From contig MFDF01000006.1 in assembly GCA_001776785.1 (NCBI GenBank), forward strand, positions 16,769-80,768: a DNA stretch of 64,000 nt, given 5' to 3'. The stretch is from Candidatus Daviesbacteria bacterium RIFCSPHIGHO2_12_FULL_37_16. Lineage in GTDB: Bacteria > Patescibacteriota > Microgenomatia > Daviesbacterales > UBA10151. A program made the translations under genes and the position numbers. Position 1 is the first letter of the stretch. Every line of letters starts with the position of its first letter. Of this stretch, positions 9,121 to 57,182 are shown one piece after another. A model generated the notes under the pieces. That model saw only the letters and a list, made by a program, of their open reading frames with translations. It did no database searches and was not told where the DNA came from.

Positions 9121-10509
9121 ATGAATGATTTTAAAACTTACCAATCCCCTTTTTCCTGGAGATATGGATCAAAAGAGATGAGAGAAATTTTTAGTGATGA
9201 AAATAAGTTTTTAACCTGGAGAAAGATTTGGGTTTCTTTGGCAAAAGCCCAATATGAGGCGGGATTAATTACAAAACAAGAACTTAATGATTTGGAAAAG
9301 AATCAAAAAAATTTAGATATTGAAAGAATATTAGAAATAGAAAAAGAAACCAATCATGATGTAGTTTCAGCAATTAGAGAATTTGCAGAAAAAGCAAAAA
9401 TTGGTGGTAAAAAAATTCATCTTGGTGCAACCAGCCAGGATATTGGTGACAATGCAGAGATTTTAAGAGACAAACAAGCTCTAGAGCTGGTAAGAGAGAA
9501 ATTAGTTCAGGTGATCAAAATATTTGGAGAAAAAATAGAAAAATACTCAGAACTTTCATGTATGGGCTATACCCACCTTCAGCCTGCAGAACCAACAACT
9601 TTAGGATACAGGTTTGCTTTTTATGCCCAGGATCTTTTGATAGATTTAGATTTCTTGGATTACATTTGCAAAACAATCAAAGGTAAGGGTTTAAAAGGGG
9701 CAGTTGGGACAGGAGCAAGTTATACAAGCTTACTTTATGGCAAAAAAACTTCAGCTGACCAATTAGAAAAAAGATTTTTAGCACTTTTAGATTTAGAGGC
9801 AGTAGAAATATCCAGTCAGGTTTATCCCAGAAAATTTGATTATTTAATTTTGACAGTTTTAAATTCTATCTCCTCGTCTCTTGCAAAGTTTGCTTTTGAT
9901 TTAAGAATTATGCAGTCCCCTGGGTTTGGGGAATGGCAGGAACCATTTTCTAAAAACCAGGTAGGGTCTTCTGCTATGCCGTTTAAGAAAAACCCATTAA
10001 ACTCAGAAAAGATTTGTTCCCTGGCAAGATATATTAATAATTTACCTCCAGTATTAGCAGAAAATGCCTCCAATTCCCTACTTGAGAGGACCTTAGATGA
10101 TTCTGCCAATAAGAGAGTTATTTTACCTGAGGCTTTTTTAGTTGCAGATGAAATATTAAAAACTTCCCAAAAAATAATTTTAGGAATATTAATAAATGAA
10201 AAAAAGATTAAATCTAATTTAGATCTTTATGCCCCATTTTCTGCTGTTGAATCAGTAATTATAGAAGCTGTAAAAAAAGGAGCTGACAGACAAGAGGTAC
10301 ATGAACACTTAAGAGAGCTTTCTATGAAATCATGGGGGAGGATACAAGATGGAGAAATTAATCCAATGATAGAAATGCTATTAAAGGATGCATATTTACT
10401 GAGGTACTTAAAATCAAGTGAGATTGAAAATTTACTTGATGTAAGAGGACACATTGGAGATGCACCTAAAAGAGCATTAAGGCTTGTTAAAATAATAAGA
10501 AAGTTGTAA
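9121..10509 (+). CDS. purB: Adenylosuccinate lyase
   Basis: Lyase_1/fumarase-fold motifs (GSSAMPFKKNP). Length and N-terminus are typical of PurB. Confidence 0.85.
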   Translation: MNDFKTYQSPFSWRYGSKEMREIFSDENKFLTWRKIWVSLAKAQYEAGLITKQELNDLEKNQKNLDIERILEIEKETNHDVVSAIREFAEKAKIGGKKIHLGATSQDIGDNAEILRDKQALELVREKLVQVIKIFGEKIEKYSELSCMGYTHLQPAEPTTLGYRFAFYAQDLLIDLDFLDYICKTIKGKGLKGAVGTGASYTSLLYGKKTSADQLEKRFLALLDLEAVEISSQVYPRKFDYLILTVLNSISSSLAKFAFDLRIMQSPGFGEWQEPFSKNQVGSSAMPFKKNPLNSEKICSLARYINNLPPVLAENASNSLLERTLDDSANKRVILPEAFLVADEILKTSQKIILGILINEKKIKSNLDLYAPFSAVESVIIEAVKKGADRQEVHEHLRELSMKSWGRIQDGEINPMIEMLLKDAYLLRYLKSSEIENLLDVRGHIGDAPKRALRLVKIIRKL

Positions 10510-38534: not shown

Positions 38535-39533
38535 TCAATCAAAGTAATTTAGCTTCATGGCTTTTTTAACTTCTGTCAAAGTTTTTTTGGCCTCAATCCT
38601 GGCTTTTTGAGTACCTTCTTTGAGGATCTTTTCTACCAGTTCTGGATCTTCTTCATACTTTTTCCTTCTTTCCCTGATAGGTTCTAAAAAGGTATTTAAA
38701 ACTTCAACTAGGAATTTTTTAACCTCCACATCCCCTACAGTACCTTCTTTATATCTCTCTTTGTAACTTGTAACTTGTGACTGGTGACTTGAATCTGAGA
38801 ATGCATCTAGATAAGTAAATACTGGATTGCCCTCAACATTTCCCGGGACTGTGGGGCTTGTTCTATTTGGGTCTGTGTACATTCCCATAACCTTTTTCTC
38901 AACAACTTCTTTAGAGTCTGTCAGGTAGATTGCATTGCCTGTGGATTTACCCATTTTACCTGCACCATCTGTGCCTGGAAGAGTAGGAACTTCACCTATC
39001 AGGGGCTCTGGAATAGGAAAAACTTCTCCATAGAGGTTGTTAAACTTAATAGCTATGTCCCTGGCAAACTCTACATGGGCTTTTTGGTCTTTACCCACAG
39101 GAACCAGGTGAGCTCTGGGGGTAAGGATATCTGCAGCCATGAGTACGGGGTAATAATATAGTCCTACTGTGTCCTGATTACCCTGGTCTAGTTTTTCTTT
39201 TAGAGCAGGCTGGCGCTGTATAACTGCCCTGGGAGTGAGAGTGGAGAGATAGTAAGCAATCTCAGTAGTTTCTGGCAGGCCTGACTGGAGACAGAAAGTG
39301 ACTTTGTCTGGATCCAAACCCACAGAAAGATACCCAAGCATTAAGCCTTTTATATTTTCTTTTAAAACATCAGTCCTGTCAAAATGGGTGGTCAGGGCAT
39401 GCAGATCTGCAATCAGGATAAAGGTTTCATACTCATCCTGAAGCTTAACCCTGTTTTGCAAAGAACCCACATAATTTCCAAGATGAAAACTATCTGAGGT
39501 TGGTCTGTCTCCTGTTAAAATTCTTTTTTTCAT
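38535..39533 (-). CDS. trpS: Tryptophanyl-tRNA synthetase
   Basis: HLGNYVG (HIGH-class) and KMGKS motifs. Internal 7-mer tandem run GTAACTT/GTGACTT at ~38758-38790. Confidence 0.85.
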   Translation of the reverse strand: MKKRILTGDRPTSDSFHLGNYVGSLQNRVKLQDEYETFILIADLHALTTHFDRTDVLKENIKGLMLGYLSVGLDPDKVTFCLQSGLPETTEIAYYLSTLTPRAVIQRQPALKEKLDQGNQDTVGLYYYPVLMAADILTPRAHLVPVGKDQKAHVEFARDIAIKFNNLYGEVFPIPEPLIGEVPTLPGTDGAGKMGKSTGNAIYLTDSKEVVEKKVMGMYTDPNRTSPTVPGNVEGNPVFTYLDAFSDSSHQSQVTSYKERYKEGTVGDVEVKKFLVEVLNTFLEPIRERRKKYEEDPELVEKILKEGTQKARIEAKKTLTEVKKAMKLNYFD

Positions 39534-39802
39534 AAATTCCTTTTTAGTTTATCACAACTTCTGTTTTACTTGGGGCCAATCCTGACCCCAAGTTTACCAG
39601 CCTCCCATTCCATATGGGTAGAAGATAATCTGTTTTGGGAAAAACCTTTCACAACCCCTGCCTTCAATAAACCCATCTAGCCTATTTCCCTTTTGGTCTA
39701 TCTGTCCAGCCTCAATACAGACTTTTTTATCTTCCTGCATTTGCCTATCAGTATCAACCATAAGCTTAAGCCCAAAACTTGTTGTCAGAATTGCTAAACC
39801 TG

Positions 39803-40582
39803 CTATGGCAATGTCTGTCTTTGAGATTTGTAATCGTTCCATTTGTCATCACCACCTCTCAGAAGTGAAGTTAAACTTACTTTTTTAGCCATTAAACAAA
39901 GAATGTTTGGATAACTTTTTTCTCTGGGAAGAATTGGGTAGAAATCTTTTTGGGAATATTTATTATTTTTGCCTTTTGAACTTAAGAGGAAACCTTTTTT
40001 AACCAGTTTAAAGGCAGAGATTTCTTTTGATAGTTTTTCATTTTTACTTTCCCTTAGTAAAACATCAAACACTACAAAATATTCCTTATTTTGATCCTCA
40101 ACATAATTTTTAAGATAGTCCTCAATGAATTTTTTAACTTCTTTTTTTGTACTCTCTGATTTTCCTCCAACTTCAAGAGAAATTCCTAAATCCACATGAT
40201 CAATTAAAGACTTTCCTGAGGCAATGCTATTTTGCATGTAAACCACTTTTTTTGTATTAAGTTTATTGATTAAAGTTAGGTGGTTGGGAGTTAGTTTGGT
40301 TGTAATAATAAAAAGTTCTGAAGGGTCAGTTGCTGTATGAAAATCTAGCACAGCCTCATATTTTTTAAGCTGTTTTAATAACTTTGAAGCTAATTTTTCC
40401 TCTTTTGTACCTTTAGGATTGCCTGGGAATGCGCGGTTTAAGTCACTTTCTATAAACCTGACATTATTATCAAAGGCTTCCTTATTTGCTATTAATAATT
40501 TGAATTTTTTAAAATATTTGTTTATAACTTTGTAGGGGGCTTTTTCTCCACCGTGCTGACAAACAACAAAAATTGTATTCAT
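39803..40582 (-). CDS. Succinylglutamate desuccinylase/aspartoacylase (AstE/AspA) family zinc hydrolase
   Basis: QHGGE...DLNRAFP...DFHTA motifs. Confidence 0.45.
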   Translation of the reverse strand: MNTIFVVCQHGGEKAPYKVINKYFKKFKLLIANKEAFDNNVRFIESDLNRAFPGNPKGTKEEKLASKLLKQLKKYEAVLDFHTATDPSELFIITTKLTPNHLTLINKLNTKKVVYMQNSIASGKSLIDHVDLGISLEVGGKSESTKKEVKKFIEDYLKNYVEDQNKEYFVVFDVLLRESKNEKLSKEISAFKLVKKGFLLSSKGKNNKYSQKDFYPILPREKSYPNILCLMAKKVSLTSLLRGGDDKWNDYKSQRQTLP

Positions 40583-41250
40583 AATAACCTCCTATAGCCT
40601 ACTAAAAGCATTGCATCTCCAGCACTATAATCTAAAATATCTGTAAAATTAGTTACTCTAGGGTTTGAGCTTCTTCTACGCTCACCTTGTGCAATCATAG
40701 GACTGCCAAAGTAGCCTGGAAGGACTAATCTTTTTTCATCAATTTCAGTTTCTGGAGTGATTAAACCTATATTCTGAAGCAAAGTAATTTGTTTACTTCC
40801 TGCAACCTCATCCATTGCAATAACTCTGGAGCAGGTATTAGCCATGATTTCAACAACCCTGTCATTTTGAGTCCTAACTGCAACTGTTTCCGCTTGATTT
40901 TGATCCAAGTAGTGGTTAACAATTTTTTCAATTACCCTGGAAGGGGCCTGGGGTTTTTTGACTATTCCTGCAATATAGATAACCCCTTCTGCTGGATAAT
41001 TTTTTAATGCTGCAAAACCTGTTGGTAGAGTGTCATTAACAGTCATATATAAATCCGCTCCTCTTATATGACTTGCTACATCCTCACTAAACTCAGGCGT
41101 TAAAGATCTTTGAAATGCGCAAGCTGCTACCTCTGATAATTGAGGCTCTAATAATTTCTTTGAGTCACCAGGTAAAGCATCAAAATTATTGGTCTTATAA
41201 ACCTGTGAACCTGCATATTCAAAACAATATTCTAACCCTTTTATATTCAT
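40579..41250 (-). CDS. Hypothetical protein (possibly acetyltransferase-like)
   Basis: 223-aa ORF. Preceded within 10 nt by an intrinsic terminator hairpin (see leader feature). Confidence 0.3.
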   Translation of the reverse strand: MNIKGLEYCFEYAGSQVYKTNNFDALPGDSKKLLEPQLSEVAACAFQRSLTPEFSEDVASHIRGADLYMTVNDTLPTGFAALKNYPAEGVIYIAGIVKKPQAPSRVIEKIVNHYLDQNQAETVAVRTQNDRVVEIMANTCSRVIAMDEVAGSKQITLLQNIGLITPETEIDEKRLVLPGYFGSPMIAQGERRRSSNPRVTNFTDILDYSAGDAMLLVGYRRLL

Positions 41251-41262
41251 CTTTTTAGGACT

Positions 41263-41309
41263 AAAAAAGCCCTTGCTTGCTCACTAAAAACTAATGAACA
41301 AACAAGGGC
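41263..41309 (-). terminator. Rho-independent terminator/attenuator hairpin immediately upstream of the 40579-41250 gene
   Basis: On the minus strand: GCCCTTGTTTG...CAAGCAAGGGC stem followed by TTTTTTAG. Confidence 0.55.
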
Positions 41310-41350
41310 CTTCTTTAGGCGGTGCCACCTTGTGTTTGATAATTTTCCAA

Positions 41351-41375
41351 ATAAAAAGCGACTTGTAAGTCGCTA
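41351..41375 (-). terminator. Rho-independent terminator ending a ~185-nt promoter-driven transcript
   Basis: On the minus strand: AGCGACTTACAAGTCGCT hairpin followed by TTTTTATTT. Confidence 0.55.
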
Positions 41376-41537
41376 AAGTTTAGGAAAAGTATCCTCTTCC
41401 AGTACTCTAGCTTTTGGCTGACATACTGCTGTCTTATGATAACGGAAGACTTCCGGATTAGACATTCCTTCGAATTCTCTCAGGATAGCCTAATCAGCTC
41501 AGGGATCCCAATCAATCCCTTCAACGCCTTTTTAATA
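41376..41537 (-). ncRNA. Candidate small RNA / regulatory leader (identity unknown)
   Basis: Lies between a consensus sigma70 promoter and an intrinsic terminator. No ORF in the track. Internal hairpins (e.g. TCCGGAAGTCTTCCG). GC higher than the surrounding intergenic DNA. Confidence 0.3.
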
Positions 41538-41543
41538 TTAAAT

Positions 41544-41572
41544 TGTAAAACTAATTATACTTAACTGTTTAC
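41544..41572 (-). promoter_or_regulatory. Sigma70-type promoter, TTGACT-17 nt-TATAAT on the minus strand
   Basis: Perfect -10 TATAAT (revcomp of 41544-41549) and -35 TTGACT (revcomp of 41567-41572) with a 17-nt spacer. Confidence 0.55.
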
Positions 41573-41587
41573 TATAAGTCAAATCAA

Positions 41588-41866
41588 TTATTCTGCATTA
41601 ATATCAATTAATCTTTCATTAACTGGTGGAAATACTTCAACTATTGGCCTGTTATCTATATGGCCTCTCCTTGAGATATTTAATAGATCTTCGGTCACAA
41701 CTTCTTTGGTGTCATGCTCTTTCATTAAAACATCTGTTCCCATTATTCCTAAAACAGTTAGGGTCCTGTCTATCCCACCAGCTCCTCTGGCAATAAAGGT
41801 TTGCCCTCTTTCAATAGGGTTAATCATAAATCCATTTGATCCTAGTTCTTTTCTGTCTATACTCAT
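41588..41866 (-). CDS. Hypothetical small protein (possible gene fragment)
   Basis: 92-aa ORF. The VLGIMGTDVLME segment weakly resembles HisG-type motifs. Not reliable. Confidence 0.2.
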   Translation of the reverse strand: MSIDRKELGSNGFMINPIERGQTFIARGAGGIDRTLTVLGIMGTDVLMKEHDTKEVVTEDLLNISRRGHIDNRPIVEVFPPVNERLIDINAE

Positions 41867-42058
41867 ATTTTTAAAACATAAAAAAAGCCACCTATCTGAG
41901 GTGGCTTTGTGGGTTTATTTAATTTGGATGACCCTTATTCTTTTGGGGCCTCCAACCCACAAAGCCTCACCCAATTGTGCATTGGGTATTGGCATTTAAT
42001 AATATTTCTAAAAAGTTTTATAGACATGTTTATGTAATATACATTACAAAAACTTAGC

Positions 42059-57101: not shown

Positions 57102-57111
57102 AACTAATATG

Positions 57112-57182
57112 TAGGCCCGGAAGGAATCGAACCTTCGTCATGACTGTATAAGAATCAGGCATTACCATTATGCAACGGGCCT
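57112..57182 (-). tRNA. tRNA with TAT anticodon (putative tRNA-Ile UAU)
   Basis: Minus strand: acceptor AGGCCCG/CGGGCCT, D-arm GCAT-AATGGTA-ATGC, anticodon stem TGATT/AGTCA with loop CTTATAC, T-arm GAAGG-TTCGATT-CCTTC. Confidence 0.55.

Follow-up and report, generated by a model that had tools for sequence, protein, structure and literature searches.

The window analysed here is the whole 64-kb stretch (64,000 nt) of a contig of Candidatus Daviesbacteria, from an uncultured groundwater bacterium. On its minus strand, a gene-free region of 337 nt (41251-41587) separates two open reading frames (ORFs), both on (-): an upstream ORF of 92 aa (41866..41588) and a downstream ORF of 223 aa (41250..40579). 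The 223-aa gene is followed by an AstE/AspA-like gene and by trpS, the gene of tryptophanyl-tRNA synthetase. Together they form a presumed operon. The stretch from 41547 to 41251 (-) is very probably the leader of this operon and a tRNA-Trp-specific T-box riboswitch that works by transcription attenuation. T-boxes serve as the standard textbook example of one RNA sensing another. A first-pass annotation of the DNA had described the region as lacking coding capacity. This is borne out by the ORF list, which shows just two mechanical ORFs of 30 aa and 42 aa inside 41251-41587.

Elements of the leader

All leader elements are located on (-), and their coordinates are given 5' to 3'. A sigma-70-type promoter (41582..41554) consists of TTGACT (41582..41577), a 17-nt spacer and TATAAT (41559..41554), with 11/12 consensus matches. 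The first-pass annotation had recognised this textbook sequence, at coordinates 10 nt off the true site (41544-41572). Sites with at least 11/12 matches occur six times in the window versus 3.4 +/- 1.6 times in shuffled sequences, and the match, taken alone, is without statistical significance. It counts through its position alone, because equally good matches are not rare in the AT-rich window. Promoter-like sequences are found at the same place upstream of the leader in four homologous loci (L015, L016, L019 and L020). The transcription start is probably near 41547. The GC content of the 337-nt region, 0.368, equals the window average. The structured core reaches 0.41, and an earlier description as GC-enriched is slightly true for the core and not for the region. 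The fold of the whole leader has a z-score of -7.7 in comparison to shuffled sequences; 0/200 shuffles folded equally well.

An Rfam scan of 551 nt (41150-41700) provided a match to the T-box family RF00230 on (-) 41533..41301. It covers the model in full length (1-219) with 43.3 bits and an E-value of 2.7e-8. The runner-up had an E-value of 0.005, and the next few matches were plant and animal microRNA models that fit just the terminator hairpin. The first-pass annotation had offered either a small RNA or a leader with a terminator/antiterminator switch for the gene at 40579-41250. The second proposal was correct in kind: the comparison with Rfam yielded a T-box, yet below the gathering threshold, whose expression platform is the second terminator. 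A T-box structure was also built by hand. Definitions of the motifs (kink-turn (K-turn), specifier with purine, F-box, 5'-RRRxG-Stem III-AA-3', UGGN bulge and G.U sensor) were taken from PMC7583486. In a script check, every helix paired as needed, with the exception of one C.U mismatch in Stem III. From 5' to 3', the elements are K-turn and Stem I, Stem II, Stem IIA with the F-box, the AAGAG end of the linker, Stem III, AA, the antiterminator with A1, bulge and A2, and the terminator.

Stem I and its K-turn occupy 41527..41497, with a high posterior probability in the Rfam alignment and support by the pairing script. The C-stem of the K-turn is formed by G41527-C41497 and C41526-G41498. It is followed by a 3-nt bulge, GUU, and the tandem pairs G41522.A41499 and A41521.G41500. 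The helix of Stem I has 6-7 bp (41520..41514 with 41507..41501) and carries the apical loop GAUUGG. Within this loop, UGG (41510..41508) is a tryptophan codon and the specifier; the purine G41507 follows. The GGUUGGAA loop is likewise present in L016 and L007, and the same short Stem I occurs in L015, L017, L019 and L020.

Stem II (41495..41456) combines GAUUAGGC/GUCUAAUC with UCCU/AGGA and was obtained in the Rfam alignment, the minimum free energy fold and the pairing check. It is too divergent among relatives for covariation testing. Its apical part is purine-rich, G-AGAGA-A-UUCGA (41466-41485). The Stem IIA hairpin CGGAA-GUC-UUCCG (41455..41443) passed the pairing check. The F-box CCGUUA (41445..41440) is aligned to the Rfam consensus with an asterisk as posterior-probability code. 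Complementarity suggests a IIB pseudoknot of 4 bp between GUCU (41450..41447) and AGAC (41434..41431); the counterpart in L020 is GUCC/GGAU. Because it holds AGAGA, Stem II was considered as the true Stem I. This was rejected, as the position 41527..41497 for Stem I follows from the K-turn, from the UGG loop, which does not vary, and from the spacing to the F-box.

Together with the purines on both sides, Stem III spans 41398..41336. Its outer helix, GAUACUUUUCC/GGAAAAUUAUC (41393..41383 with 41348..41338), encloses a first terminator-like hairpin. Rfam puts Stem III at the position of the outer helix, with a 37-nt insertion, and the composite fold has -18.0 kcal/mol. A homologous composite stem in L019 is aligned by a covariance model derived from the window. 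The purine string 5'-RRRxG...AA-3' is present, with AAGAG (41398..41394) before and AA (41337..41336) after the stem at 41393..41338. L020 has AAAGG and AA around its Stem III. The enclosed apical hairpin, AGCGACU-UACA-AGUCGCU (41374..41357), has 7 bp and -8.7 kcal/mol. It is followed by UUUUAUUU (U4-A-U3) to 41349. The first-pass annotation had seen here, at 41351-41375, the terminator of an RNA. The hairpin and the U-run do exist; they are nested in the outer helix of Stem III and very probably do not mark the end of a small RNA. Most likely, this hairpin is a structural part of Stem III.

The antiterminator (41333..41302) has -9.1 kcal/mol and consists of A1 ACAAGG/CCUUGU, a 7-nt bulge and A2 GCCU/AGGC with the loop AAAGA. 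The bulge UGGCACC (41327..41321) between A1 and A2 is supported by the Rfam alignment and the pairing check. In L007, L016, L019 and L020, it reads UGGCACC, UGGUACC or UGGUAAC. Helix A2 is replaced by CCUUC/GAAGG in L016. The intrinsic terminator has 19-20 bp (41310..41292 with 41286..41268), a GUUUU loop, -32.8 kcal/mol and a U6 run (41268..41263). Here the first-pass annotation, with a second terminator and a T6 run, agrees with the analysis: the hairpin at 41310..41268 with its U6 run ends 12 nt ahead of the ATG at 41250. The 5' arm of the terminator (41310..41292) contains the 3' arms of A2 and A1 (41311..41302), an overlap of 10 nt. Due to this shared arm, terminator and antiterminator are mutually exclusive. 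The energy gap between them, about -9 versus about -33 kcal/mol, is the usual imbalance of T-boxes that tRNA binding has to overcome. The platform is a transcription terminator and not a sequestrator, because a hairpin is combined with U6 and the ribosome-binding region lies outside. In L020, AAAGGAG is located 3' of the U-run.

Relatives, covariation and probable tRNA specificity

The 223-aa protein has 19 homologues among 5.8 billion clusters. The family was found solely in Microgenomates-type contigs; the four genome matches belong to Levyibacteriota, Roizmanbacteria and Amesbacteria. The 223-aa protein nearly always has an AstE/AspA-like protein and trpS as companions. The pair of 223-aa and AstE-like genes is present in L007, L012, L013, L014, L017, L018, L020, P0001 and P0005. 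P0001 and P0005 are gene tables without DNA, and P0005 has an upstream gap of 590 nt. The order 223-aa gene, AstE-like gene and trpS recurs in L012 and L013. L015 has the 223-aa gene and trpS and no AstE-like gene; in L017, the pair is followed by a cut ORF.

A T-box-type leader stands upstream of the operon in the window, L007 (5' end cut), L016, L019 and L020, and L009 has the terminator only (5' end cut). A covariance model built from the single window sequence matched L020 with 24.7 bits (E 4.8e-7) and L019 with 21.2 bits (E 5.5e-6). Both matches run end to end and are located at the expected position upstream of the homologous gene. For L007 and L015-L017, Rfam scanned by E-value gave no matches. 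Regular expressions and the covariance model detected no T-box upstream of the 223-aa homologues in L001-L006, L008, L010-L014, L018 and L021. Most of these T-box-negative loci have a Trp_repressor-family or a tRNA-Trp gene in its place. A small Trp_repressor-family gene with a short spacer precedes the operon in L001, L002/L005, L012, L013/L014 and L018. Beside the operon of the window, the ORF list and a Pfam search revealed no Trp_repressor gene.

The leaders covary. In six leaders, the 21 pairs of the terminator had 99.2% of cells paired, and 9/21 pairs showed compensatory changes. The covariation score was reached by 0/500 shuffles, and sliding one arm reduced pairing to 30-55%. For Stem I and the K-turn in five leaders, 7/8 pairs were compensatory and 92% of cells were paired, again with 0/500 shuffles at the score. 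All five aligned leaders have unchanged G.A pairs in the K-turn and an unchanged UGG in the loop, each time followed by a purine. The proteins adjoining these leaders are only 40-55% identical. Conservation and covariation, on which the first-pass annotation had made its reading depend, are thus both found in the relatives.

The specificity for tRNA-Trp is suggested by three elements. A UGGC in the bulge leads to the expectation of a tRNA with the 3' end GCCA. The tRNA-Trp(CCA) genes of the Microgenomates relatives L006 and L011 encode the discriminator G73, and their 3' GCCA is complementary to UGGC. In both loci, the tRNA-Trp gene is located directly upstream of the 223-aa homologue. Specifier, bulge and the regulated synthetase therefore point to tRNA-Trp as the ligand. 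The sequence and structure elements, their conservation with covariation and the fit of specifier and bulge to tRNA-Trp are observations.

Some leaders of relatives have additional structures. In L016, a 61-nt insertion with two hairpins (nt 2098-2165) adjoins the UUGGAACG specifier region of Stem I on its 3' side, which makes a multi-helix junction of the apical loop. The A2 of L016 also carries an insertion of ~50 nt. A hairpin between F-box and Stem III is conserved in L015, L016, L017, L019 and L020 and is not obvious in the window. Its stems covary (ACGAG/CUCGU, ACUUG/CAAGU, AUGCG/CGCAU and AACCAA/UUGGUU), and an internal UGUCG...CGGAG is conserved.

Probable mechanism and place among T-boxes

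By analogy with established T-box biology, the leader would be expected to bind tRNA, sense its charging state and terminate transcription. RNA polymerase would start at the TTGACT-17-TATAAT promoter. The nascent RNA would fold into the K-turn, a short Stem I, Stem II, plus Stem IIA/B bearing the F-box. UGG in the Stem I loop would pair with the CCA anticodon of tRNA-Trp. With uncharged tRNA-Trp, the 3' GCCA would pair with UGGC of the bulge and the 19-bp terminator would be prevented. Readthrough into the GNAT-fold gene (the 223-aa gene), the AstE/AspA-like gene and trpS would follow. With tRNA-Trp charged or absent, the terminator would form and transcription would stop at U6, 12 nt ahead of the ATG.

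Several points weigh against the reading as a T-box. The 43.3 bits are under half of the curated gathering score of RF00230, 93 bits. The T-box was absent from both Rfam scans of the 64 kb: the scan at gathering thresholds gave three tRNAs and nothing else for the whole window, and the permissive E-value scan lost the match because of its speed filters. Due to the sub-threshold score and this loss, routine annotation would overlook the leader. Stem I has no elbow-binding distal platform (IDTM) and presents a 6-nt loop in place of 72 model positions. Transcriptional T-boxes 'generally require' a long Stem I with IDTM, which speeds tRNA capture before the terminator (PMC7583486). The statement on Stem I length is shared by PMC11297988 and the TBDB paper. 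Stem II showed no loop-E/S-turn signature, and the pseudoknot of IIA/B is a possible pairing. The A2 pair adjoining the bulge is G41320-C41308, in place of the conserved G.U wobble at the base of A2, a steric sensor that clashes with the aminoacyl group (PMC7583486). At this position, L007, L019 and L020 have G-C and L016 has C-G. The hairpin and U-run in Stem III are located upstream of the discriminator and could halt transcription ahead of the T-box decision. Stem III also has an isoenergetic competitor, a hairpin at 41417..41378 (-18.4 kcal/mol) that shares 3 nt with the 5' arm of the apical hairpin. Among the regulated genes, trpS is located 269 nt beyond the AstE-like gene and is presumably co-transcribed. 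The tRNA-Trp gene of the organism itself is not in the 64-kb window. The comparative set is small, with 5-6 leaders, some truncated, and the shuffle control ignores relatedness.

The hairpin in Stem III may also be a polymerase pause site or a leaky terminator. A pause would suit the absent platform because of the extra time for tRNA binding. A stronger form of this idea is tentative and has a minor chance to be true: two checkpoints in one attenuator, with the hairpin at 41374..41357 and its U-run as a true terminator or strong pause before the discriminator is made. Many transcripts would end there as a ~195-nt RNA, and just the complexes that get past this point would come to the T-box decision. 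Passage would perhaps be aided by tRNA on the decoding module or by the competing hairpin at 41417..41378. This would add to the T-box reading and not replace it. The hairpin passes a terminator-like scan and occurs in 5/7 leaders with the region visible. A GC-rich hairpin with U5-7 is present at the equivalent place in L015, L016, L017 and L019, and the window-derived covariance model aligns hairpin and U-run with the L019 counterpart. It precedes a full discriminator in L016 and L019 and is the sole terminator in L015 and L017. The isoenergetic competitor of Stem III, which reaches into its 5' arm, is also consistent with a checkpoint. Platform-less transcriptional T-boxes would be short of tRNA-binding time (PMC7583486), and a pause would supply it. 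Other features argue for an ordinary Stem III. The stem has just 7 bp and its U-run is broken, the outer helix and the flanking purines suit the ordinary role, the short Stem III of L020 is free of a U-run, and Stem III is absent from L007.

The leaders in L015 (nt ~315-470) and L017 (nt ~170-315) share the K-turn, the UGG-loop Stem I, Stem II, the IIA hairpin and the F-box. A single hairpin with U6-7 is their sole terminator, and they have no UGGNACC bulge and no UGG 3' of the F-box. Either these leaders are T-boxes in decay, or they are attenuators that bind tRNA and are blind to the acceptor end. A broader proposal, doubtful in its entirety, unites these observations in a distinct Microgenomates lineage of the candidate phyla radiation (CPR). 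Its transcriptional T-boxes, without platform and G.U sensor, both of which are held to be generally essential for T-boxes that act during transcription, would compensate by a pause or first terminator in Stem III that gives the slow-binding Stem I/II module time to capture tRNA-Trp. L015 and L017 would be attenuators that do not read the acceptor end.

A decayed T-box in the window is very unlikely. In such a relic, the operon would be controlled elsewhere, for example by a Trp-repressor-family protein as in relatives. The sub-threshold Rfam score and the missing G.U sensor pair would fit. Many relatives use the Trp_repressor-family gene instead, and L015 and L017, with a decoding module and no UGGN bulge, illustrate that this leader family can lose parts. 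Yet the core elements that were checked are all intact in the window, apart from the lineage-wide absences of platform and G.U pair. The compensatory changes and the invariant UGG and UGGN next to proteins of 40-55% identity point to purifying selection on the RNA. A constitutive 19-bp terminator ahead of the essential trpS would be harmful without antitermination, and the operon of the window has no adjoining Trp_repressor gene.

An independent small RNA, 6S- or SRP-sized (signal recognition particle) in the first-pass annotation, is still less probable. Its gene would begin at the promoter and end at the first terminator, and the second hairpin would be just a terminator or insulator ahead of the next gene. 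The promoter, the strongly structured stretch and the hairpin with U-run ~195 nt later would suit such a gene. However, no small RNA, 6S or SRP family was matched at gathering thresholds or at E <= 10, weak chance matches aside. The T-box alignment spans both parts end to end, and the supposed 185-nt RNA consists of the decoding module and Stem III of the T-box. The bulge and the antiterminator come after the first hairpin and reach into the second terminator. The first hairpin is missing from L020 and L007, which keep all else. Ribosome-mediated attenuation at a leader peptide, or a small protein gene inside the 337 nt, is hardly credible: a 30-aa ORF with ATG exists on the coding strand (41465..41373), but it cannot report tryptophan supply because it has no Trp codon, it crosses Stem IIA, the linker and the 5' arm of Stem III, and the conservation is RNA-like with paired compensatory changes and not codon-like.

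The T-box leader of the window combines features of two known classes. Class I transcriptional T-boxes of Firmicutes (RF00230; e.g., tyrS/trpS-type of Bacillus subtilis) have the same order of elements. They share the aminoacyl-tRNA synthetase gene matched by the specifier, the terminator competing with an antiterminator and the UGGNACC bulge. In contrast to the 6-7-bp Stem I of the window, Class I has a platform of AG bulge (AGAGA) and distal loop (UGxRA). The window also differs by G-C for G.U in A2, a composite Stem III with hairpin and U-run, a CPR host (Microgenomates-type) and the GNAT-fold and AstE/AspA-like genes as first genes.

The AGAGA in Stem II of the window equals the consensus for one of the T-loops in the Stem I platform, and its UUCGA is a tRNA-type T-loop pentamer. 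Speculatively, this apical part of Stem II could be a substitute for the absent elbow-binding platform.

In translational T-boxes, mostly from Actinobacteria, Stem I is likewise short and carries the specifier in its apical loop (PMC7583486). These Class II T-boxes (ileS of Mycobacterium tuberculosis and Nocardia farcinica, with an 'ultrashort' or short Stem I) share with the window the short Stem I without IDTM, the specifier in the apical loop and the basal K-turn. Stem II and IIA/B likewise follow directly after Stem I and are needed there for tRNA binding (PMC7583486, PMC11297988). Class II hides the Shine-Dalgarno sequence in a sequestrator helix, whereas the platform of the window is a 19-bp hairpin with U6. 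The amino acid (Ile in ileS, Trp in the window) and the phylum differ as well. The L007 leader, in which Stem I leads almost directly to the T-box sequence, recalls glyQS T-boxes, which have no Stem II domain. Its layout is only partly visible because the 5' end is cut. The glyQS T-boxes have a long Stem I with IDTM, whereas the leader of the window retains Stem II and IIA/B.

The literature searched contained no description of a T-box for CPR, Patescibacteria or Microgenomates, bacteria with tiny genomes. The leaders very probably represent a divergent lineage of transcriptional T-boxes with a short Stem I in CPR, beneath the detection threshold of Rfam, and their mechanism is almost certainly the known one. 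In this conservative reading, they are a divergent member of a well-understood family and no new biology is needed. A Stem I without platform, a clear terminator and a G-C at the sensor position offer a natural test of which T-box parts are indispensable. The case also illustrates that curated Rfam thresholds and speed filters overlook riboswitches in CPR genomes.

Operon genes and the upstream region

The 223-aa gene (41250..40579 (-)) is the first regulated gene. Its protein has no Pfam family, and the AlphaFold model has a pLDDT of 95 and a pTM of 0.90. The top Foldseek matches listed from the PDB are mostly GNAT acetyltransferases (E 2.5e-5, probability 1.0), and a GNAT fold is predicted. 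The second gene (40582..39803 (-), 259 aa) overlaps the first by 4 nt and matches PF24827 with an E-value of 1.9e-16. AstE/AspA-like stands for the succinylglutamate desuccinylase/aspartoacylase family. The trpS gene (39533..38535 (-), 332 aa; PF00579, E 8.3e-66) is the last gene of the presumed operon. Between 41250 and 38535, no terminator-like site was found on (-).

The gap before trpS (39534-39802) has 269 nt in the window versus 4-22 nt in relatives. An 82-aa ORF with one hydrophobic segment (39842..39594) is located there. A GC-rich hairpin, CUUGGGG...CCCCAAG, without a U-run lies just 5' of the ribosome-binding site of trpS.

Across genomes, the pair of GNAT-fold and AstE-like genes is tied to tryptophan in three ways: by the UGG T-box, by the Trp_repressor-family gene and by the tRNA-Trp gene. 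This threefold link is a lead and not a result. Some GNAT-fold enzymes take aminoacyl-tRNA as substrate.

A conserved small ORF of 26 aa (..EAL..GQGLVW..) was seen in L007 (nt 117-200), L015 (~477-557), L017 (316-396) and L019 (~350-430). It begins directly 3' of the U-run of the terminator and, in a different frame, runs over the start of the GNAT-fold gene. The window has the equivalent codons (MNIKGLEY..) joined in frame to the 223-aa gene. One explanation could be an upstream ORF with coupled translation; a frameshift that recurs could be another.

The 92-aa ORF upstream of the leader has 100% identity to 'hypothetical protein ACD_30C00081G0008 [uncultured bacterium]', an NCBI entry of the ACD aquifer data set. 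This identity assigns the window to the ACD metagenome of the Rifle aquifer. It is an orphan, because just one other homologue exists, with 64% identity. A role as Trp repressor was considered and rejected, with no Pfam match and two homologues only. Upstream of this ORF, 41870-42058 (-) is a second ORF-free structured region with a z-score of -5.4. No Rfam family was matched in it; the matches were to the terminator alone. A strong terminator, AAAGCCACCU-cagau-AGGUGGCUUU with U8 (41908..41884 (-)), has a 5' arm that overlaps the 3' arm of a long hairpin, GGCUUUGUGGG...CCCACAAAGCC. This looks like an alternative pairing in the style of a riboswitch.

A tRNA-Ile with the anticodon UAU is encoded in the window (57111-57182) and likewise in L006 (region 9162-9472). 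Two neighbouring tRNA-like genes of L006 were left unassigned by ARAGORN ('tRNA-???', with a 2-base anticodon).

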